Below are positions 14,045 through 60,739 of a stretch of 64,000 nt of DNA, piece after piece. Each line of letters starts with the position of its first letter. Within the stretch, counting starts at the first letter, position 1. A model generated the notes under the pieces. It did not search any database. It worked only from the letters and a program-made list of their open reading frames with translations, and was not told where the DNA came from. The stretch is from Eubacteriales bacterium (GTDB lineage Bacteria > Bacillota > Clostridia > Oscillospirales > CAG-382). The position numbers and the translations under genes are program-made. The DNA is taken from contig JAZNCU010000072.1 in assembly GCA_045587745.1 (NCBI GenBank), forward strand, positions 13,069-77,068. Direction: 5' to 3'.

Positions 14045-16324
14045 TTAATCGTTATTGCGGATGACTGCACGCCTTATCTTACCCGAGATTGTTTTGGGAA
14101 GCTCGTTTACGAACTCAACTCGTCTGGGGTATTTGTACGGTGCGGTACGGGTTTTTACGTAGTTCTGAATCTCCTTAACGAGGCTATCCGAGGGAAGGGT
14201 TTCCTTGGTGAGTACGATAGTAGCCTTGACGATCTGACCTCTTGTCTCATCGGGAACGCCGGTAATGGCGCACTCAAGCACGTAAGGAAGCTCCATAAGC
14301 ACGCTCTCGATCTCAAAGGGACCTATGCGGTAGCCGCTCGATTTGATAACGTCGTCAACTCTGCCAACGTACCAATAGTAATCGTCCTCGTCCTTCCAGG
14401 CGGTGTCGCCGGTATGGTAAAATCCGTCGTGACGTACCTCGGCGGTCGCCTCCTCGTTGAGGTAATAGCCGTCGAACAGACCTACCGCTTTGCCATTATC
14501 GGTACGGATAACTATCTCGCCTACCTCACCGACACTTGCCTCGGTTCCGTCATCCTTCATGATCATTACCGAATATGCGGGACTCGGTCTGCCCATTGAG
14601 CCGGGCTTGGGCTCCATGCCGTAGAGGTTGCCCACCGTGAGGGTGGTCTCGGTCTGGCCAAAGGATTCCATCAGCTTGACACCGGTATGCTCATAGAATT
14701 TATTATAGACCTCGGGGTTGAGCGCCTCGCCTGCGATAGTGGCGTACTTGAGGGAGGAAAGATCGAATTTTGAAAGGTCCTCACGGATAAGAAAACGGTA
14801 TATCGTGGGAGGTGCACAGAAGGTGGTTATGCCGTATTTTTTGAACATAGGAAGCAGCGTGGAGGCATCAAATCGGTCGAAATCGTAAACGAAAACTCCC
14901 GATTCGCAAAGCCACTGTCCGTATAGCTTACCCCAGAGTGCCTTGCCCCAGCCTGTATCGGCAACCGTAAAATGAAGTCCGTCGGGCTCGACGTTGTGCC
15001 ACCAGCGTGCAGTGACGATATGCCCGAGAGGATAGGTAAACGGATGGATGGCCATTTTGGGATATCCCGTGGTGCCGGAGGTAAAGAACATAACCGAGGG
15101 ATCGGTCGCAAGGGTATCGGCACGGTCAAAATGCGAGCTGCAGCGCATAAAGCCGGTATCGAAATCGAACCAGCCGTCACGGGGCTCCCCGACGATGATC
15201 TTGGTTTTGAGCGAGGGGCATTTTTCGGCGGCGGCAGACGCCTTCTCGGCACAGCCGTCATCCGAGGTACACACGATAGCCGAGATATGACCGGCATTGA
15301 AGCGGTACTCAAAATCGTGCTCCTGAAGCTGGTGAGTTGCGGGAACGACCACTGCGCCGATTTTATGCAGCGCAATGATGGATACCCAGAACTGCCAATG
15401 CCGCTTCAGCACAAGCATTACACGGTCGCCCTTTTGGATGCCGAGCATGGAAAAATAGTTGGCCGCCTTTGAGGAAAGACGGGAAATATCACGGAAGCTG
15501 AATTCCTTTTCGCTGCCGTCGTTGCCTACCCACATAACCGCACGCTTATCGGGAATTTTCTCTGCAAGCGCATCCACAACGTCGTAAGCGAAATTGAAGT
15601 TATCGGGGTAATTAAAGGTAATGTCGGTAAGCTTTCCGTCGGCATCAACAGTCTCGGTAACGAAGCTCCTGTAGATACAGCCTGCGTATTTGTCAACGAG
15701 AGGCTTGGTAAGCTTTTTGGCAGGAACGGGAACAGGCTCATCGGCAATATCGTCGCCATCCTCCTTGAAAACGACAGCGAGGAACACGCAATCCTCGCCT
15801 CCGACCGCAACCATTCCGTGGCTGTGGGAGGAATCATAGTAAACCGAGTCGCCGGGATTCATAACGTAGATATGATTCTCGAGCTGAACCTTAAGGTGTC
15901 CCGACAGAATGTAGTTGAACTCCTGTCCCTTGTGGGCGGCAACGGCAATAGGACCCTCCTCAAGCTCTTTGTCATACTTTGCGGTGACGATAAAGGGCTC
16001 GCTCTTACGGTTACGGAGCATGGGAGCTACGTGCCGATAATTGAATCCCTCCTCGCGGCGGATGGGCATTCCCTCCCCCTTACGGGTGAGGTTGTAAAAC
16101 CAGAGCTTGGGGTCAATACCCGAAACGAGCTCCGAAATATCCATTCCGAGCGTCTGGGAGCATTTGTAGAGAAAAGTAAACGAAAAATCATCATTTCCGT
16201 TCTCAAGGTAAAGATACTCATCAACCGAGATGCCGCATTTTTCGGCCATTACCTCGGCAGTAATATCAAGGTTTTCCCTCGCCCATCTGAGACGAGCGGC
16301 GATCATTGTTGTTTGTTGTTCCAT
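14045..16324 (-). CDS. Fusion protein: N-terminal HTH(XRE)+cupin module joined to an AMP-forming (medium-chain type) acyl-CoA synthetase
   Basis: Track ORF 14045..16438, trimmed to MEQQTTMIAARL (ATG 16324-16322, GGAGGG RBS). The first 38 track codons lie over the T-box terminator. The HTH_3 region is ITAEVMAEKCGISVDEYLYLENG. The cupin region is HKGQEFNYILSGHLKV...PGDSVYYDSSHSHG. The adenylate-forming core shows FFTSGTTGYPK, FGQTE, YHTGD, SSGYRIGPFEIES and PKTISGKIRR. Confidence 0.8.
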   Translation of the reverse strand: MEQQTTMIAARLRWARENLDITAEVMAEKCGISVDEYLYLENGNDDFSFTFLYKCSQTLGMDISELVSGIDPKLWFYNLTRKGEGMPIRREEGFNYRHVAPMLRNRKSEPFIVTAKYDKELEEGPIAVAAHKGQEFNYILSGHLKVQLENHIYVMNPGDSVYYDSSHSHGMVAVGGEDCVFLAVVFKEDGDDIADEPVPVPAKKLTKPLVDKYAGCIYRSFVTETVDADGKLTDITFNYPDNFNFAYDVVDALAEKIPDKRAVMWVGNDGSEKEFSFRDISRLSSKAANYFSMLGIQKGDRVMLVLKRHWQFWVSIIALHKIGAVVVPATHQLQEHDFEYRFNAGHISAIVCTSDDGCAEKASAAAEKCPSLKTKIIVGEPRDGWFDFDTGFMRCSSHFDRADTLATDPSVMFFTSGTTGYPKMAIHPFTYPLGHIVTARWWHNVEPDGLHFTVADTGWGKALWGKLYGQWLCESGVFVYDFDRFDASTLLPMFKKYGITTFCAPPTIYRFLIREDLSKFDLSSLKYATIAGEALNPEVYNKFYEHTGVKLMESFGQTETTLTVGNLYGMEPKPGSMGRPSPAYSVMIMKDDGTEASVGEVGEIVIRTDNGKAVGLFDGYYLNEEATAEVRHDGFYHTGDTAWKDEDDYYWYVGRVDDVIKSSGYRIGPFEIESVLMELPYVLECAITGVPDETRGQIVKATIVLTKETLPSDSLVKEIQNYVKTRTAPYKYPRRVEFVNELPKTISGKIRRAVIRNND

Positions 16325-16371
16325 AAAAACCCTCCGATAAAATGATATTACCGTTGTCGGACAAGTGAATA

Positions 16372-16606
16372 TAAAAAGCCTCATCTGCAATGAGATGAGG
16401 CTAAAAGCATCATTATACCACTCATTTGCCACGCCCAACAGCGCAATTCCCTTTGTTACGGCGGAAGCTCCGTCATACCCTACCGAAAACCCTCGGGCAT
16501 GCAGCTCAAAGGTGATAAATCCGTCCTTCCGTTACTGCCTCGCACCAAACGGCAGCTCTCTGAAACGGGTGAGATACGGACCCGTGTCCTTATCCTCGCT
16601 TTTATT
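16372..16606 (-). promoter_or_regulatory. T-box riboswitch leader (specifier read as AUC, Ile) with terminator/antiterminator
   Basis: The minus-strand RNA shows these elements in order. The K-turn base is AGC-GAGGAU-AAGG...CCUU-UGA-GCU. The AG bulge and distal loop are CAGAGAG-CUGCC-GUUUGGUGCGA-GGCAG. CCGUAAC is an F-box-like element. The antiterminator is AAUGAG[UGGUAUA]AUGAUGC-UUUUA-GCCUCAU-CUCAUU. It overlaps the terminator AGCCUCAUCU-CAUUGC-AGAUGAGGCU-UUUUU (16402-16372). The element is about 235 nt long. Confidence 0.85.
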
Positions 16607-18086: not shown

Positions 18087-18120
18087 TCCCTGCAATCTCG
18101 CGGTTGCAGGGAAATTTTTG
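18087..18120 (+). terminator. Intrinsic terminator after cobB
   Basis: TCCCTGCAA-tctcgcgg-TTGCAGGGA followed by AATTTTTG. Confidence 0.7.
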
Positions 18121-18121
18121 T

Positions 18122-18201
18122 CGGGGTCCCCGAGAAGCCGACAGGCTTCTTGGGGTGATTACGGGGTCCCCGAGAAGCCGACAGGCTTCTTGGGGTGATT
18201 T
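18122..18201 (+). repeat. Two tandem 40-bp hairpin units (CGGGGTCCCCGAGAAGCCGACAGGCTTCTTGGGGTGATTA)
   Basis: The two copies are identical by direct reading. Each folds as CCCCGAGAAGCC-GACA-GGCTTCTTGGGG, 12 bp with one G.U pair. The unit is related to those at 53997-54035, 59310-59420 and 26119-26154. Confidence 0.9.
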
Positions 18202-18202
18202 T

Positions 18203-25145: not shown

Positions 25146-25239
25146 ATCTGTATCTCCTGTAGGTTGATTACGTAAGTATTTTTGACCGCAGGAGCTTTTT
25201 TATACAAAAAAGACTCTTCAAGGCTACTTCTCATAGGAA

Positions 25240-25280
25240 TAAATAAAACTCCGGCAAGTTCAAAGAGTTGTCGGAGTTTT
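25240..25280. terminator. Bidirectional terminator downstream of the GNAT gene
   Basis: AAAACTCCGGCAA-loop-TTGTCGGAGTTTT. On the minus strand it is followed by TTTTATTTATT. Confidence 0.6.
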
Positions 25281-25316: not shown

Positions 25317-25910
25317 TTATTCGTTTTCAAAGCGCCCCGGTTTTTTATGTAAAAAATATCCAAAATCAAAACGAACCTCATGTCTTGCTATATCGACATT
25401 AGTGTAACAGCACGAATCAAATCCAATTAATTGAAAGCCTTGTTTTCTATAAAAATCAATTGCGTGAACATTGCATGATTGAGTTTCTAAAATGATAGCT
25501 CTTCTTTTTTGGATCTTTGCTTGTCTCTTTGCAAGGTTCATAAGCGCTGTGCCTATTCCTTTTCTTTGGAGGTTATCGGAAACCCAAAGTTCCGTCACTA
25601 TCAAACGATTGCTCCACTCTTCGGGACATAGTTCAATACAAGCCAATAATTCTTTTTTGCCATTACTCTCATTTATTATCCCATATGCTTGAGCATTTTC
25701 CCAATGATTCTGGTATAAACTATCAGGGTAATCATATTCTTCGGGTGAATGAGTCACAGGCTTATCGAATCTTTTCTTTACCATATTCACTTGAAAAAAT
25801 TCACTCGATTCAATGATTTCTAAATCATAGTATTCTTCCGAGGAGTATTTTAGATAAATTGGAGTTCCTTTCCACTCTTCTTTTGGTAAATGAACAATCT
25901 CGTATTTCAT
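25317..25910 (-). CDS. GNAT N-acetyltransferase, streptothricin-acetyltransferase (SatA)-like
   Basis: 197-aa ORF. The acetyl-CoA motif is LQRKGIGTALMNLAKRQA. The C-terminal ILETQSCNVHAIDFYRKQGFQLIGFD...Y resembles the B. subtilis SatA/YyaR pattern (recalled from memory). The codon usage is visibly AT-rich compared with the neighbours. Confidence 0.55.
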   Translation of the reverse strand: MKYEIVHLPKEEWKGTPIYLKYSSEEYYDLEIIESSEFFQVNMVKKRFDKPVTHSPEEYDYPDSLYQNHWENAQAYGIINESNGKKELLACIELCPEEWSNRLIVTELWVSDNLQRKGIGTALMNLAKRQAKIQKRRAIILETQSCNVHAIDFYRKQGFQLIGFDSCCYTNVDIARHEVRFDFGYFLHKKPGRFENE

Positions 25911-26039
25911 ATTGTATCAGCTCCGCAAATACTTATTCGTAGGGCAGAAGAACCAGCGTCGCATTTGTAAGTACAAACGCTTTATCGTGTTATGCCTAAT
26001 TTTATTTCATAATAACATATCCTTCAATATTATTCAAGT

Positions 26040-26222
26040 TTTATTCGCCAAACTCGGCGTAGCCGAATACCACTATGCGAAGCATGATAAAACTGCGAAG
26101 CAATATCACTCGCCGAACGGATAACCCCACAAAACTATGTTTTGCGGGGACCCCATGAGGCGAATAAAACTGCGAGACTTCCCAAAAGGAAGTCTCGCAA
26201 GGGTGCTTTTTTGAATTATCCT
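26040..26222 (-). repeat. Composite intergenic repeat (inverted copy of the 59263-59640 element) immediately 3' of pepF
   Basis: The reverse complement reads GCGAGACTTCC-ttttgg-GGAAGTCTCGC-AGTTTTATTCGCCTCATGGGGTCCCCGCAAAACATAGTTTTGTGGGGTTATCCGTTCGGCGAGTGATATTGCTTCGCAGTTTTAT. This is near-identical to 59265-59450 but has one 37-bp unit instead of three. Confidence 0.85.
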
Positions 26223-52050: not shown

Positions 52051-52210
52051 TCTCGGATATTAAGGAAGATTCTTTATTTTATTTTTGGGGCTTTTACAAA
52101 AGGCTTCGACTGCCCTACCTTTGTAGGCCGACGCTCGCCTTTTGCAAAAAATAACTTCGCTCTATGCCCTCCAAGACAGCCTAAACCGTACTTTAGGATG
52201 TAGCCGAATA

Positions 52211-52305
52211 AAACTGCCGAAGGCAATACCACTATGCGATGGGGTCATACGCAAAAGTTCTTTTGTGGGGCAAAAAGCATAATATAACTGCGAAGCAATA
52301 TAACT
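52211..52305 (-). repeat. ~95-bp repeat module (inverted copy of 59428-59522)
   Basis: The reverse complement matches 59428-59522 with about 4 mismatches by eye (AGTTATATTGCTTCGCAGTTaTATTATGCTTTTTGCCCCACaAAAGAACTTTTGCGTATGaCCCCATCGCATAGTGgTATTGCCTTCGGCAGTTT). Confidence 0.85.
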
Positions 52306-52345
52306 TGCCCGATATGGCGAATAACACTCGGAATACAATAAAAAT

Positions 52346-52408
52346 CGCTTTGCAACGCAAAGCTTCCTTAACTTATCACTTATCACTTATCACTTATCAT
52401 TCATCATT
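52346..52408. repeat. Hairpin + AAGCTTCCTT + heptamer array (ACTTATC x4-5)
   Basis: CGCTTTGC-AA-CGCAAAGC is followed by TTCCTTA and then the 7-bp tandem acttatc x4 plus attcatc (52371-52405). Confidence 0.8.
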
Positions 52409-52508: not shown

Positions 52509-52626
52509 TATAGACAGACAAACAAGACAAACAAGACAAACAAGACAGACAATAGACAATAAGACAGACAATAGACACAAAAAAATATAAAAAATATTAT
52601 AAAAACTTTTTTGTCTGTCTGTCTAT
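52509..52626 (+). repeat. Iteron-like direct repeats + AT-rich tract bracketed by an inverted repeat
   Basis: GACAAACAA x3 (52517-52543) is followed by GACAGACAATAGACA x2 (52544-52578) and a 32-nt pure A/T tract (52579-52610). TATAGACAGACA (52509-20) faces TGTCTGTCTGTCTATA (52611-26). Confidence 0.75.
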
Positions 52627-53996: not shown

Positions 53997-54035
53997 CGGG
54001 GTTCCCAATAAGCCGACAGGCTTATTGGGATAATT
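53997..54035 (+). repeat. Single hairpin unit of the GGGGTCCCC family
   Basis: The sequence is CGGGGTTCCCAATAAGCC-GACA-GGCTTATTGGGATAATT. The layout and GACA loop match 18122-18201, but the stem letters are changed in a compensatory way. Confidence 0.8.
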
Positions 54036-58617: not shown

Positions 58618-59262
58618 ATGCAGGATTACAAAAGAATTATCGCAAACAACATATCCGAGCTCCGCAAAGCGGTCCCGATGACTCAGGCAGAGCTTGCCGA
58701 GAGGCTTAATTATTCTGACAAAGCTATTTCCAAATGGGAGCGCGGCGAGTCGATTCCCGACGTTTCGGTGCTCAAGGAGATAGCCGATGTTTTTGGAGTC
58801 ACTGTCGACTATCTGCTCGAGGAGATACATCCTCTGAACGCAAAAATGCAGAGTGTCCCCCGTCAGACCGTCAAGAGCCGTACGATGGTCGTGCTGATGT
58901 GCTGTACTCTCGCTTGGTTTATTGCCACGCTTGTTTTTGTGCTGCTTTGGCATCTGACCGACCTGTCACGCATCTGGCTCTGCTTTATTTACCCTATCCC
59001 CGTCAATGCGATCATCGGCATCGTCTTCAACTCAATCTGGGGTAAGGCTAAATATAACTTTATGCTCATCTCGGTGCTCGTTTGGAGCATTCTCGCCTGC
59101 ATCTACCTCTCGGTAGGCGTATACGAGAGCTGGGGAGTGTTTGTTATAGGAATCCCCGCTCAAATTATTATACTGCTATGGTCGGGCACGAGGGCAAGGT
59201 TTCTTCGCTCGGGAAATAAGCAAAAAAAGCAAAAAGCGCATATAATAGACAAAGGGGAGTAA
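58618..59262 (+). CDS. Membrane-anchored XRE-family HTH protein
   Basis: The HTH_3 region is MTQAELAERLNYSDKAISKWERGESIP, followed by about four predicted TM helices. The second ATG (58618) has better spacing to AGGAG than the track start at 58609. A TTGCAA-17-TATAAT promoter lies upstream. Confidence 0.75.
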   Translation: MQDYKRIIANNISELRKAVPMTQAELAERLNYSDKAISKWERGESIPDVSVLKEIADVFGVTVDYLLEEIHPLNAKMQSVPRQTVKSRTMVVLMCCTLAWFIATLVFVLLWHLTDLSRIWLCFIYPIPVNAIIGIVFNSIWGKAKYNFMLISVLVWSILACIYLSVGVYESWGVFVIGIPAQIIILLWSGTRARFLRSGNKQKKQKAHIIDKGE

Positions 59263-59640
59263 TAGCGAGACTTCCCAAAACGGAAGTCTCGCAGTTTTAT
59301 TCGCCTCGTGGGGTCCCCGCAAAACATAGTTTTGTGGGGTTATCCTGGGGTCCCCGCAAAACATAGTTTTGTGGGGTTATCCTGGGGTCCCCGCAAAACA
59401 TAGTTTTGTGGGGTTATCCGTTCGGCGAGTTATATTGCTTCGCAGTTTTATTATGCTTTTTGCCCCACTAAAGAACTTTTGCGTATGTCCCCATCGCATA
59501 GTGTTATTGCCTTCGGCAGTTTAAGGCGAATAAAATAACACTGAAACCTCTTGGTTTCAATAACACTGTTACCGCAGGTAATAATAACACTCCTACGAAG
59601 TCGGAATATAACTTGAAATAAATTGGCTTGTTGATAAAAT
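59263..59640 (+). repeat. Composite modular intergenic repeat (terminator hairpin - 3 x 37-bp units - ~95-bp module - AATAACACT/hairpin array)
   Basis: It starts 1 nt after the stop codon. The first module is GCGAGACTTCC-caaaac-GGAAGTCTCGC-AGTTTTATT. Three tandem units follow at 59310-59420. Next is a module shared with 52211-52305 and partly with 26040-26118. The last part is AATAACACT + short hairpin x3 (59534-59600). Confidence 0.85.
59310..59420 (+). repeat. 3 x 37-bp tandem repeat (GGGGTCCCCGCAAAACATAGTTTTGTGGGGTTATCCT)
   Basis: The three contiguous copies were read directly and differ only at the last base of the third. Each folds as CCCCGCAAAAC-ATA-GTTTTGTGGGG, 11 bp with one G.U pair. 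Confidence 0.9.
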
Positions 59641-59914
59641 GACAAGGATTTAGCCTAGCCCAAGAACATTTGTACAGACAAATGCGATGCCGGTTTTTTC
59701 GAATCAGTTCGATAAATTAGGGTTTATCGAACAGAGTACAACGAACCTCGACTGACCTTCAAAAAATCCGTCGGGATTTTATCATCCTTACGAGAAGTAG
59801 CCTTAAGGCTTCCCTTTTTTACACATCATTATTTGGATAGTGCTTGACTATTTCGACAAATTGTGCTATTATACTCGGTAGTCATAGCAAATTATTATAT
59901 TTAAGGAGAAAACT

Positions 59915-60739
59915 ATGAAAAAATTAGCATTTATTCTTGCCCTGGTTATGGTATTCACTCTTGCTTTTGCAGCATGCGGCTCCGATGAGGAAAGCTCCGT
60001 AGCAGGCGGCGACGCTTCCAATACCGAGTCTGTTGCAGATCAGTCCGCCGATACTTCTGCCGAGACTTCCGGCGAGACTTCCGACGAGGCTTCCGATGAG
60101 GAGTCCACCGAGGCTTCCGACGAGGAGTCCACCGAGGCTTCCGACGAGGAGTCTACCGACACCTCCGATGAGGAGTCCACCGAGACCTCTGAGGAGGATG
60201 TTTCCATTCCCGAAGAGCTCAACAACATCGCAGCAGGTAAATCCTACACCACCTCTGAGCTTTACAGGCAGGGCGGTGCAGATGTTAACTGGGCGTATGA
60301 CCCCAGCGCTGAGATCGCGTATCCCGACACCGATAACTGCGAGCTTACCGACGGCGTCCTCCCCGAGATCGTTACCGAGGCGGGCGAGCACTACCGTGAC
60401 GAGGCTTGGATCGGTCTCCACTTCGGCGTTCCCGAGTACAGCACTCTCGGCTATGCATACGTAACTCTTGATCTCGAAGAGGCTACCACCTTCTACGGCG
60501 CAAACGTTTACGTTGGCACCAACCTCGTTGGCGGCGGAGTCGGCCTTCCCTCCGGTGTATCCGTTTACGTTTCGGACGACGGCGAGAGCTGGACTCTCTA
60601 CGGAGAGGCCGTTCCTTCCGATGCTTCTACCAACGTATGCTGCGTTGAGTTTGAGGGCGTTGCCGAGGCTCAATACGTTCAGTTCCGTCTTACCGCAGGC
60701 GGCTGGATCTTTGTATCCGAGGTTGAGGTTCTTGGCTAA
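59915..60739 (+). CDS. Lipoprotein with an acidic SDEESTEA tandem repeat linker and a C-terminal discoidin (F5/8 type C)-like domain
   Basis: It has a signal peptide with a lipobox (LAFAAC). An 8-aa/24-bp repeat occurs about four times (about 60094-60195). The C-terminal YVQFRLTAGGWIFVSEVEVLG is typical of a discoidin-domain end. A TTGACT-17-TATTAT promoter lies upstream. Confidence 0.55.
   Translation: MKKLAFILALVMVFTLAFAACGSDEESSVAGGDASNTESVADQSADTSAETSGETSDEASDEESTEASDEESTEASDEESTDTSDEESTETSEEDVSIPEELNNIAAGKSYTTSELYRQGGADVNWAYDPSAEIAYPDTDNCELTDGVLPEIVTEAGEHYRDEAWIGLHFGVPEYSTLGYAYVTLDLEEATTFYGANVYVGTNLVGGGVGLPSGVSVYVSDDGESWTLYGEAVPSDASTNVCCVEFEGVAEAQYVQFRLTAGGWIFVSEVEVLG

Follow-up and report, generated by a model that had tools for sequence, protein, structure and literature searches.

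Gut-1 motifs and GGGGT-tagged hairpin units form a nested intergenic mosaic

The region 59263-59820 of the window, by which we mean the whole analysed stretch of 64,000 nucleotides, is a nested mosaic of two small hairpin repeat families. The scaffold of "AGTTTTATT/AATAACACT plus small hairpin" modules is the Gut-1 RNA motif (Rfam RF01706), present here in two convergent copies, and the 37-bp unit is a separate element lodged in the loop of Gut-1 hairpin 1 and not a module of the same element. Both the unit family and Gut-1 are multi-copy in the genome, and each is found independently of the other. With a probability of roughly one half we regard them as REP/BIME-like non-autonomous hairpin repeats that spread as DNA beside or within hairpins already present, with slippage expanding them. 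The original prediction had described a single element of A-B(n)-C organisation, which does not hold: A and C are the catalogued Gut-1, and B is the independent repeat in the hairpin loop.

Organisation of the mosaic and its relatives in the window

The two families are represented in the window by the following features.

59265..59292 (+): terminator-like hairpin GCGAGACTTCC-N6-GGAAGTCTCGC with an 11-bp stem, 2 nt past the stop codon of the HTH gene
59293..59536 (+ sense): Gut-1 left arm, from alignment A1 with uninterrupted relatives
59293, 59428, 59444, 59500 (+): left-arm boxes
59302-59305 with 59424-59427 (+): Gut-1 hairpin 1, CGCC with GGCG
59310..59420 (+): three identical 37-nt GGGGT-tagged units inside the loop of Gut-1 hairpin 1
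59437-59443 (+): Gut-1 hairpin 2, GCTTCGC
59453-59456 with 59496-59499 (+): Gut-1 hairpin 3, ATGC with GCAT
59459..59494 (-): decayed inverted unit of 36 nt in the loop of hairpin 3, ATGC-TT[...]C-GCAT
59509-59517 (+): Gut-1 hairpin 4, GCCTTCGGC
59525-59536: central GGCGAATAAAAT, complementary to box 1 plus CGCC
59534..59615 (- sense): Gut-1 right arm, convergent with the left arm
59534, 59559, 59583: right-arm AATAACACT boxes, alternating with hairpins 59543-59558, 59568-59582 and 59592-59606
59667..59695 (+): module D, palindrome CATTTGTAC(AG)ACAAATG, then CGATGCCGGTT
59761..59820 (+): module E, small hairpin, TTTTAT, CATCCTTACGAGAAGTAGCCTT, N8, T-run
about 26037..26199 (-): second copy, 3' of pepF, with the same terminator-like hairpin at 26172-26198
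25956-25979 and 25206-25280 (-): modules D and E of the second copy
52205..52330 (-): third copy, Gut-1 left arm alone, between divergent genes
18123..18202 (+): two identical 40-nt units in tandem, with another stem (CCCCGAGAAGCC GACA GGCTTCTTGGGG)
53998..54034 (+): single variant unit (GGGGT TCCCAATAAGCC GACA GGCTTATTGGGA TAAT) past the terminator of the PAP2 gene

The first hairpin had been called terminator-like, and together with AGTTTTATT it is the sole terminator-like site that our terminator scan places on the + strand of the element. Its DNA fold has -12.4 kcal/mol (z = -6.0), its U-rich tail (59293-59301) is at the same time the first Gut-1 box AGTTTTATT, and the hairpin is shared with 26172-26198(-) and with the relatives L140 and L156. 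The left arm contains an inverted repeat with 12/12 matches (59295-59306 / 59524-59535). The 37-nt unit reads GGGGT CCCCGCAAAAC ATA GTTTTGTGGGG TTATCC and folds with -9.9 kcal/mol (z = -4.2). Its three perfect tandem copies, seen already in the original prediction, were recovered by TRF at about 59310-59420 (period 37, 3.0 copies, 100% matches) and score 37.7, 28.3, and 24.6 bits with model R1. The G.T pair (CCCCG/TGGGG) is found on the sense strand of the upstream gene, as had been noted, and the suspected degenerate inverted copy of the unit is borne out by an alignment score of 11 at 59459-59494, compared to a mean of -9.2 and a maximum of 5 in shuffles (0/2000 reach it). The extent of 59263-59640 was drawn too narrowly: the mosaic inside it is real, but the repeated mosaic continues through modules D and E to about 59820. 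Module D is common to 25956-25979(-), L001, and L140, and module E is the right-hand limit of the shared mosaic. In L140, module E and the left end make up an inverted repeat of 35 nt. The gene downstream of the 59263-59640 element encodes a secreted F5/8-type-C domain protein.

The inverted copy 3' of pepF with one unit could be reproduced by BLASTN (59282-59345 = 26182-26119(-), 98%; 59383-59458 = 26155-26080(-), 97%), and so could the recurrence of the 95-bp module (59428-59522 = 52305-52211(-), 95.8%, 4 mismatches in 95). The second copy comprises a Gut-1 left arm with one unit (26118-26154) and without the 36-nt insert, while its right arm is a stub. Its box 1 plus CGCC is complementary at 13/13 positions to 26037-26049, and its modules D and E enclose a GNAT acetyltransferase gene (25317-25910). 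The units at 59310 and 26154 are identical and probably travelled with the Gut-1 motif that hosts them, so that they do not count as independent insertions, a point against spread as DNA. In the third copy, hairpin 3 holds the decayed inverted unit, and an intact unit is absent. The three elements catalogued in the original prediction exist, but two unit sites had been missed, 18123-18202 (2 x 40 bp) and 53998-54034. The units of the first site are located past the terminator of a SIR2-family gene (18088-18111 plus T-run) and reach 63.6 and 52.3 bits with R1. The 53998 unit differs from them by three compensatory changes, and it reaches 36.5 bits with a fold z-score of -7.0. With R1, the window yields 7 units distributed over 4 intergenic sites, two of which are without Gut-1. 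The recurrence of the 9-mer was also correctly observed: the window contains 12 occurrences of AATAAMACT, where 1.0 would be expected, and only two of them lie outside the three elements. GGGGTYCCCR..YGGGRT is present 7 times against 0 expected, and solitary TCGGGGTGAT boxes are not enriched in the window (4 vs 3.65 expected). Exact-protein look-ups for pepF, the PAP2 gene, the F5/8 gene, and the 51424 gene returned no record.

Gut-1 as scaffold and as host of the units

Each Gut-1 arm consists of 9-nt boxes AGTKWTATT, corresponding to the GUGAAAU of Rfam, which alternate with variable hairpins of 2-7 bp. Rfam at gathering thresholds returned nothing for the element in the window and in 18 loci, and the Gut-1 covariance model has no match at 59263-59640 or 26037-26199; the motif was recognised only when uninterrupted relatives were scanned permissively. 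RF01706 has a gathering score of 50 bits; the uninterrupted L140 reaches 51.4 bits with its left arm and 44.9 bits with its right arm on opposite strands, two other uninterrupted relatives reach 47.0 (L142) and 39.5 bits (L141), and 52221-52329(-) of the window reaches 29.7 bits (E = 3.6e-4 locally, cmscan). The window copies stay below the threshold because insertions split hairpins 1 and 3. In the cmscan alignments the AGTKWTATT boxes and the hairpins fall onto the boxes and stems of the Gut-1 model. All copies have these boxes around CGCC..GGCG, GCTTCGC, and ATGC..GCAT, which are invariant columns in A1, and Gut-1 seed sequences, for example BAAZ01000095, share the succession of left arm, centre, and right arm.

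The nesting is visible in A1 at both interrupted hairpins. At hairpin 1 the relatives read CGCC-aaa/ttc-GGCG where the window reads CGCC-tcgt-[units]-gttc-GGCG, and at hairpin 3 ATGC-ttc-GCAT stands against ATGC-tt-[36 nt]-c-GCAT. Gut-1 copies without units are found in L140-L143, L156, and L158, and R1 detects no unit in L140-L143. Conversely, units without Gut-1 are present at 18123 and 53998 of the window and at no fewer than 120 loci in other genomes.

The published description of Gut-1 is one sentence, 'human gut only' and no function, and the motif was rated 'certainly RNA' on covariation (Weinberg et al. 2010, PMC2864571). The copies described here agree with Gut-1 in the GUGAAAU-type boxes, in three or four small covarying hairpins, and in their location directly past a predicted terminator that follows a stop codon or tRNA. 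Of nine copies examined, eight have the left arm in the same sense as the upstream gene or tRNA, so that orientation is not random. Of the outcomes that the original prediction had named as refuting it, random orientation, confinement to the window or one strain, and a lack of covariation are thus contradicted by the data. New with respect to that description are the convergent pairs, the multiple copies (3 in 64 kb), the variability among strains, the accommodation of foreign hairpin insertions, and the pairing of box 1 with a central complement, the two covarying in four variants.

A purely RNA-level function is a serious rival to mobile DNA repeats, although we consider it rather unlikely. 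Gut-1 would then be a structured 3'-UTR, a read-through RNA, or an sRNA, the GGGGT hairpins would be RNA modules for 3'-end protection, protein binding, or the sequestering of the SD-like GGGGUGAU, and spread and covariation would reflect selection on RNA structure. The classification on covariation fits this, as do the canonical cUUCGg loops and the covariation of box 1. GGGGUGAU, which we take to be complementary to the 16S 3' end (anti-SD) save for one G.U, is found at SD distance from ATG in viral contigs. However, units and left arm directly follow a terminator hairpin plus U-tract, and the distance of 2-24 nt to the stop codon leaves no room for a promoter, so that they would be transcribed by read-through only. 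For the right arm (59534-59615) there is no gene in the window that would transcribe its sense direction. Gut-1 hairpins 1 and 3 are interrupted by units, and the interrupted copies persist.

Near-identical Gut-1 cores are present in species that share no other DNA similarity. On the strand opposite to the Gut-1 sense, many of the small hairpin loops read C-GAA-G or C-GAAA-G, and the invariant GCTTCGC is the complement of GCGAAGC. GCGNAGC and GCGNNAGC are motifs of extra-stable DNA mini-hairpins (PMC13037366), and this detail therefore favours DNA, as do the C-GNNA-G loops that most GGGGT units of low-GC genomes have on their own sense strand.

The GGGGT-tagged unit family and its turnover

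The unit is composed of TC-GGGGT, a hairpin closed by CCCCG/TGGGG with the G.T pair at position 5, and TGAT or TTAT. The elements are present in other strains and species: units are carried by at least 120 loci in Clostridia, Acidobacteriota, WOR-3, Cloacimonadota, and others, with several loci per MAG, and since the genome scan was pattern-selected these copy numbers and the taxonomic spread are lower bounds and possibly skewed. Among the matches listed there are 100 distinct inner stems, whose first five free pairs comprise 455 Watson-Crick, 14 G.T, 6 A.C, and 24 other combinations. Covariation is strong, given that 94.8% of the cells are paired in an alignment of 32 sequences versus 75.1% in shuffles (0/500 reach 94.8%), with double changes in all 7 free pairs. 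Outside of the search pattern, the flanks of the matches listed have T at -2 (97/127), C at -1 (112/127), and T at +1 (83/127), and position -3 is variable (A 56, T 32, G 25, C 14). Where the pattern did not force the pair at position 5, it is G.T in 31 matches, A-T in 14, and G-C in 7. The hairpin z-scores of the units range from -4.2 to -7.0, and in every array the units follow each other head-to-tail, with a period of 37, 40, or 41. A permissive Rfam scan contained no family matching the unit, literature searches with the strings GGGGTCCCC, TGGGGTGAT, and CGGGGTCCCC gave irrelevant matches only, and the first 200 of the 438 supplementary files of Weinberg 2010, Gut-1.sto among them, contain only incidental matches to GGGGUCCCC. 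The GGGGT-tagged hairpin repeat is apparently undescribed so far.

The units tend to be placed beside or within hairpins. Among the low-GC loci listed, a strong hairpin lies within 45 nt upstream in 36/63 compared to 11/63 downstream. Complementary flanks, in 21/59 of the high-GC loci listed, imply that the unit sits in the loop of a larger hairpin. Among the matches listed, more units share the orientation of the upstream gene or terminator than oppose it (32 vs 15), and a T-run just upstream was found in 25/65 compared to an A-run just downstream in 7/65. The orientation bias and the conserved G.U would fit a function at the transcript level equally well, and further support for RNA comes from the GNNA tetraloops and from R1, which scores the sense strand far higher than the antisense strand (63.6 vs 17 bits). 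Against it, about a third of the low-GC units among the matches listed are antisense to the neighbouring gene, and presence or absence and 1-3 copies among strains with identical flanks are unusual for a functional RNA.

This variation was followed in strains of 99% or higher identity. The variable copy number expected in the original prediction is found at three loci (3/1, 1/2, and 2/0 units). The HTH locus has 3 units in the window and 1 in L001, and at the pepF locus the window has 1 unit, and L147 and L148 have 2 as well as the 36-nt insert. The SIR2 locus has 2 units in the window, L145, L153, and L154, and just GTC-GGGGTGAT in L144, L146, and L155. The gain or loss at the SIR2 locus is bounded by the GGGGT direct repeat, and this filled/empty polymorphism is equally well explained by slippage deletion between GGGGT repeats. 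In an outgroup search for the SIR2 site, the nearest other homologues were 67% identical, and relatives at 92-98% only added alleles. The arrays of L119, L120, and L139 contain hairpin-less 'tatcGGGGTGAT' units in register. We also considered that L001 might be an assembly chimera of loci 59 and 26; this was rejected because L001 is collinear with locus 59 through module D and its GNAT gene has neither DNA nor protein similarity to the GNAT of the window.

Tandem copies that are identical fit slippage, and one could imagine home-grown terminator or insulator arrays that arose by local duplication without dedicated mobility and were kept to stop read-through from both sides, with lookalikes elsewhere being convergent or spread by ordinary recombination. 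In favour of such arrays, the hairpin of every module has a U-rich 9-mer behind it (AGUUUUAUU, AGUUAUAUU, UGAUUAU), the HTH gene has no terminator-like site besides the first hairpin, the dyad-symmetric arms offer the same modules to transcription from either side, and the arrays are located between genes, often convergent ones. Convergence nevertheless fails to account for the invariant 10-nt tags and TC at -2/-1 common to Clostridia and Acidobacteriota, and the near-identical Gut-1 cores and the units inside hairpin loops in both orientations are left unexplained. Moreover, most of the module tails are poor U-tracts, and only two terminator-like sites were called in 59150-59950. We regard purely local arrays as improbable. 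A side-effect of the repeats as terminator or insulator is possible.

Mode of spread and comparison with known systems

Under the preferred reading of non-autonomous, REP-like repeats, the units would act as folded single-stranded DNA and would be copied beside or into the loops of existing hairpins. The target sites would be 3' of intrinsic terminators in Firmicutes and inside larger hairpins in Acidobacteriota and Gut-1. The copying enzyme would be encoded elsewhere and would read the invariant tags and the hairpin shape. An HUH/Y1 enzyme (RAYT or IS200-like) is the obvious candidate. A Pfam scan of about 50 proteins of the 64-kb window detected neither a transposase, RAYT, or integrase nor any further candidate, the neighbouring genes of the at least 120 loci listed contain neither a recurrent family nor a candidate enzyme, and between unit pairs there is no RAYT and only housekeeping genes such as rpoA, an alanine symporter, and peptidases. 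Arrays may grow and shrink via slippage or unequal exchange between GGGGT(GAT) direct repeats, and gene conversion might shuffle modules between Gut-1 copies. Units would persist because sites behind terminators are harmless, and the stacked hairpins with their U-rich boxes may reinforce termination and insulation both ways. More tentatively, the two families might be brought together: the TC-GGGGT/hairpin/TGAT unit could be a third cross-phylum superfamily of tagged palindromes beside GTAG and CGTC, moved by a single-strand DNA enzyme at or in hairpin loops, and 'Gut-1 RNA' could be a repetitive dyad-symmetric DNA element of similar grammar (hairpin plus GUGAU-type box) and no conventional sRNA gene.

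It seems very unlikely that double-stranded DNA is what is recognised, either as an array in which the 9-mers (AATATCACT/AGTGATATT) in inverted blocks bind a dimeric or multimeric protein, or as the subterminal transposase-binding repeats of a cut-and-paste MITE. There are three to four boxes per block in two oppositely oriented blocks, the left arm is bounded by an inverted repeat of 12-13 bp, the outer inverted repeat of L140 has 35 nt (83%), and the GNAT gene between modules D and E of locus 26 resembles a cargo. The inverted repeats could, however, equally well represent stems of RNA or DNA, or a bidirectional terminator that has been split. The spacers between the boxes are covarying hairpins, which duplex binding does not explain. 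At no copy, the Gut-1 copies included, was a target-site duplication seen (the GGGGT repeat of the unit is ambiguous in this respect), no transposase-bearing parent element was found, and the whole mosaic had no BLASTN match in plasmid and phage collections.

Gut-1, an Rfam motif without a function since 2010, thus gains a genomic context: it is multi-copy, arranged in convergent pairs, located behind terminators, variable among strains, and invaded by another repeat. This context directs experiments to genome dynamics or termination over a classical sRNA. The identical GGGGT-hairpin tags in Clostridia and Acidobacteriota constitute a testable cross-phylum repeat family. If the enzyme were found, the REP/RAYT paradigm would extend beyond Proteobacteria and a hairpin-loop-targeting activity could emerge. 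In addition, the repeats create polymorphisms for strain typing, and they probably break metagenome assemblies because many contigs here end inside repeats.

Several known systems with small repeats were compared and rejected. In a CRISPR array the repeats would not abut as the units do, without spacers, and there are no cas domains in the window. ToxI-like RNAs of type III toxin-antitoxin systems are tandem repeats of about 36 nt directly upstream of a ToxN-type endoribonuclease gene; here the downstream gene is the F5/8-type-C gene instead of ToxN, and units are single elsewhere. The matches to the guanidine-II riboswitch (mini-ykkC, with ACGR loops) were antisense and, at 17.6 and 16.5 bits, lay below its gathering score of 32. 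For attC and for a mimic of the 16S 3' end, the defining feature was absent or the likeness weak.

Closer analogies are found among mobile and repetitive elements. As a mechanistic analogy, the ends of IS200/IS605 elements and PATEs suggest that a single-strand hairpin plus a short flank would be recognised, and insertion 3' of a fixed pentanucleotide without a true target-site duplication would fit GGGGT/hairpin...GGGGT/GAT. In the IS608 stem a mismatch or wobble is reportedly a recognition feature, and the stem of the unit similarly carries one. Unlike IS200/IS605, the unit is one hairpin of about 30 nt that lacks a left and a right end, its 3' GGGG belongs to the stem, and no TnpA was found. 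The likeness to pneumococcal BOX elements, proposed in the original prediction together with BIMEs, stands for the modular behaviour: both are intergenic in Firmicutes, have a variable number of an internal module of about 40 bp, and are predicted to fold stably. In contrast to boxA-boxB(n)-boxC, the variable module here is a foreign element inside another motif and the hairpin grammar is a different one, the comparison being by modular behaviour only.

The agreement is most extensive with REP/BIME (Di Nocera 2013, PMC3733652; RAYT, Nunvar 2010). In both cases imperfect palindromes of 30-40 nt have an invariant short tag and a lineage-specific body, lie outside genes, for the most part at 3' ends and between convergent genes, and occur as singletons, in tandem arrays, and in mosaics with other motifs, with polymorphic copy number. 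The mosaic, dispersed, covarying, and copy-number-variable nature implied by the original prediction is therefore retained, but membership in the family is not. REP superfamilies are defined by a GTAG or CGTC tetranucleotide tag (PMC3733652), whereas the tag of the unit is TC-GGGGT...TGAT/TTAT. REPs alternate in clusters, whereas the units are head-to-tail, and no RAYT was found in the window or between unit pairs. The hairpin of the unit is bracketed by a GGGGT direct repeat, and the units are found in Clostridia, Acidobacteriota, and candidate phyla, and REP/BIME in Proteobacteria. The unit thus behaves like a BIME without being a member of the BIME family.

Units in the window and in other genomes

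The original prediction saw, behind the HTH gene, a modular BOX- or BIME-like element with a variable-copy 37-bp unit, and its parts are readily recovered. The three perfect tandem units lie at 59309-59419 (TRF), a BLASTN search of the window with the element returns the single-unit inverted copy that lies 3' of pepF as well as the 95-bp module at 52305-52211 (4 mismatches), and the 9-mer AATAAMACT is present 12 times in the window where 1.0 is expected. The unit folds into a hairpin of 11-12 bp (z-scores -4.2 to -7.0). Its pattern occurs seven times in the window (0 expected), including two sites that had been overlooked:

18123-18202: two 40-bp units
53998-54034: one unit

Both have the flanks of the other units and different, compensating stems. 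Built on units of other genomes, a covariance model matches these seven units at four sites and nothing more in the 64 kb.

A single pattern-biased genome scan (GGGGTCCCCG-N12-24-TGGGGTKAT, complementarity of the inner stem not being demanded) returned at least 120 loci in other genomes. Among the matches listed are Clostridia, Eubacteriales and Oscillospiraceae gut MAGs, many Acidobacteriota, WOR-3/Stahlbacteria, Cloacimonadota, Dormibacterota, Verrucomicrobiia, Bacteroidales and further groups, with 4-7 loci apiece in several MAGs. The inner stems of these listed matches comprise 100 distinct sequences and are near-universally complementary, their first five free pairs being Watson-Crick in 455/499 cases. 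In an equal-length alignment of 32 sequences, 94.8% of the cells are paired compared with 75.1% in shuffles (0/500 as high), pairing falls to 42-58% when the register is slid, and the structural covariation implied by the original prediction appears as double substitutions at 7/7 free pairs. T at -2, C at -1 and T at +1, all outside the search pattern, are conserved in low- and high-GC groups alike, and the loops of low-GC units are mostly C-GNNA-G or C-GNA-G. At stem position 5, additional hits unconstrained there have G.T in 31, A-T in 14 and G-C in 7 cases, which argues that one strand is the functional one. The motif matched no Rfam family, and a sequence-string search found no paper describing it. 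The unit is a member of a large cross-phylum family.

GGGGT-type hairpins immediately upstream of an ATG were seen in the loci L003-L005, L007-L015 and L018 (viral contigs) and in L038 (Cloacimonadota), with their GGGGTGAT at Shine-Dalgarno distance (GGGGTGATtcctggttATG). This suggests that the 3' tag of the unit can double as a putative sequestered ribosome-binding site.

The window is a piece of ordinary Firmicute chromosome (aro genes, ileS, divIVA, sepF, miaA, queA, dapA, folD) in which no transposase, integrase, cas or Y1 domain was found. Beside the units of other genomes no recurrent neighbour-gene family was seen, the neighbours being housekeeping genes. The typical position of the unit in low-GC genomes is behind a terminator hairpin: among the low-GC loci listed, a strong hairpin is located upstream in 36/63 and downstream in 11/63, and a T-run just upstream in 25/65 against an A-run just downstream in 7/65. 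Among the matches listed, a larger hairpin encloses the unit in its loop at 21/59 high-GC loci, and crude gene calls put the upstream gene in the unit's orientation in 32 cases and in the opposite one in 15. Elsewhere in the window, at 16388-16605 (-), there is a T-box leader-like match that stays short of the gathering score (72.3 against 93 bits, E = 1e-13). It extends over the start annotated for ORF 14045-16438(-), a gene with HTH, cupin and AMP-binding domains. Probably this start is over-extended, or the gene is an unusual one among those with T-box regulation.

Nesting of units in Gut-1

The invariant core of what had been called the C module, run against metagenomes, found four copies from other organisms (L140-L143), and two more (L156, L158) come from IMG/VR contigs. 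The 37-bp unit is absent from 6/6 of these relatives. All share a ladder that begins with a terminator-like hairpin and continues with four AGTKWTATT boxes alternating with tiny hairpins (CGCC-nnn-GGCG, GCTTCGC, and variable hairpins 3 and 4), followed by a centre and by 3-4 hairpins alternating with AATATCACT, which is the box as read on the other strand. In permissive Rfam scans each half of the ladder is Gut-1 (RF01706), on opposite strands and convergent, with 51.4 (gathering score 50) and 44.9 bits in L140, 47.0 and 27.1 bits in L142, 39.5 bits in L141 and 29.7 bits at window 52221-52329. The window copies stay below the threshold because units or the 36-nt insert interrupt the hairpins. 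The seed alignment of Weinberg includes sequences of like layout, with a predicted terminator after a stop codon or tRNA, and the published description gives only occurrence in human-gut metagenomes and a probable non-coding RNA (PMC2864571). The scaffold of the element is a member of Gut-1, a known motif without assigned function.

Gut-1 copies and adjoining modules of the window
59263-59820: mosaic after the HTH gene (locus 59); box 1 plus CGCC at 59293-59305, its complement in the centre at 59524-59536
26037-26199 (-): copy 3' of pepF (locus 26); box 1 plus CGCC at 26163-26175, its complement at 26037-26049
52205-52330 (-): third copy (locus 52)
59667-59695 (+) and 25956-25979 (-): module D, also in L001 (~1285-1320) and L140; palindrome CATTTGTAC(NN)ACAAATG-CGATGCTGGTT
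59761-59820 (+) and 25206-25280 (-): module E, also in L140 (943-977); hairpin, TTTTAT, CATCCTTAYGAGAAGTAGCCTT, N8, T6

In the alignment of relatives and window copies, hairpin 1 reads CGCC-aaa/ttc-GGCG in the former and CGCC-tc(g/a)t-[1 or 3 units]-gttc-GGCG in the latter. The 36-nt insert of hairpin 3 (59459-59494) separates the TT from the C in the triloop of ATGC-TTC-GCAT, and its reading as a degenerate inverted unit is upheld by a similarity score that 0/2000 shuffles reached. Gut-1 is the host into which the 37-bp unit has been inserted. In the left arms of the window, L142, L143 and L158, the central GGCGAATAnAAT is the complement of box 1 plus CGCC, in four covarying variants (TTTTATT/AATAAAA, TTATATT/AATATAA, TTGTATT/AATACAA, CTCTATT/AATAGAA). 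This pairing is incompatible with Gut-1 hairpin 1 and is not in the Rfam model.

L156 and L158 are complete convergent pairs on contigs classed as viral, and the terminator-like hairpin of L156 (GCGAGACTTCC) is identical to that of the window copies. The third copy is adjoined by simple tandem repeats, (ACTTATC)4 and (AGACAA)n at 52371-52399 and 52512-52580, all within a 685-bp divergent intergenic region. Repeats are nested in Acidobacteriota too, where a second hairpin family (GGGTG-CCCCA..stem..TGGGG-TGG; L021, L024, L052, L073, L096, L134 and other loci) often encloses a GGGGT unit in its own loop. At its 3' end the unit has a tag, (G)GUGAUUAU, that is similar to the Gut-1 box (A)GUGAUAUU (for instance, window 18155-18162 compared with 59428-59436), and the tag variant GUUAUCC of the window parallels the Gut-1 variant GUUAUAUU. 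A single 'hairpin + GUGAU' grammar, or a single recognition factor, may be common to both families.

Strain variation and the right-hand modules

The proposed variability in copy number was found between strains at three loci, using other-sample contigs at least 99% identical to the window. The SIR2-gene terminator has two units in the window, L145, L153 and L154, and only ...TTTTTGTC-GGGGTGAT-TTTTT in L144, L146 and L155, the difference being exactly the stretch between the first and the last GGGGT. At the pepF locus, two independent 9-kb contigs (L147, L148) carry two units and the 36-nt insert, compared with one unit and no insert in the window. The HTH locus of L001 has one unit, against three in the window, and no insert, and one right-arm hairpin is swapped (GTTACCgcaGGTAAT against ATTGCgaaTGCAAT). 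Because the nearest relatives outside the species reach only ~67% identity in a conserved protein, these differences can be read as gain or loss alike. Arrays of other genomes contain hairpin-less 'tatcGGGGTGAT' units in register, which shows hairpin loss between GGGGT repeats. Left-arm variants are mixed across loci 26, 52 and 59 and across the alleles of these loci, which indicates putative gene conversion between Gut-1 copies.

The shared mosaic continues rightwards through modules D and E. From 59695 on, the two strains differ in the gene that follows the mosaic, a GNAT gene in L001 and an F5/8-type-C protein gene in the window. Synteny thus breaks at the element, with a slight chance that L001, a short metagenome scaffold, is chimeric. 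The F5/8-type-C protein gene contains in-frame 24-nt tandem repeats (60044-60198, 5.8 copies, 83% matches) encoding an acidic S/T/E-rich linker. At the pepF locus modules D and E enclose a GNAT gene, module E following it, and thus the mosaic brackets a gene. Module D is directly upstream of GNAT acetyltransferase genes in two cases, the genes being unrelated, and in L001 it overlaps a promoter-like arrangement (TTGTAC...TATAAT). Carried along in the mosaic, module D may act as an operator or promoter. In L140, module E and the left end form a 35-nt inverted repeat (83%).

Proposed mechanism and known repeats

From the nesting, the independence of the two families, the covariation, the conserved tags, the turnover and the placement beside or inside hairpins, all of which are observed, we infer that the units would be non-autonomous and REP-like, and that the folded single strand is what would be recognised. 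The enzyme that copies them, to sites adjacent to hairpins or in hairpin loops, would be encoded elsewhere. Slippage between GGGGT(GAT) repeats would then amplify or remove them. The complement of the invariant GCTTCGC is GCGAAGC, many loops of Gut-1 hairpins have C-GAA-G on the strand antisense to Gut-1, and the C-GNNA-G of most low-GC unit loops is on the unit's own sense strand. These loops match extra-stable DNA mini-hairpin motifs (PMC13037366), which mildly supports folding at the DNA level. A role of Gut-1 or the units at the RNA level is kept alive by the cUUCGg loops of canonical Gut-1, the conserved G.U of the unit and the orientation bias. Since the elements follow a terminator immediately and leave no space for a promoter, any such role would be confined to read-through transcripts. 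As a by-product, the elements may plausibly serve as a stacked, bidirectional terminator or insulator.

The BOX/BIME likeness stands for the whole mosaic, which behaves like either, and has to be amended for its variable unit, the insertion. The unit itself behaves like a REP, but it lacks the defining GTAG or CGTC tag, its arrays do not alternate in orientation, and no RAYT has been found with it so far. What is new is the tag shared across phyla by the unit family, the lodging of units in hairpin loops, and a revised view of Gut-1 as an element that is multi-copy, paired and variable between strains.
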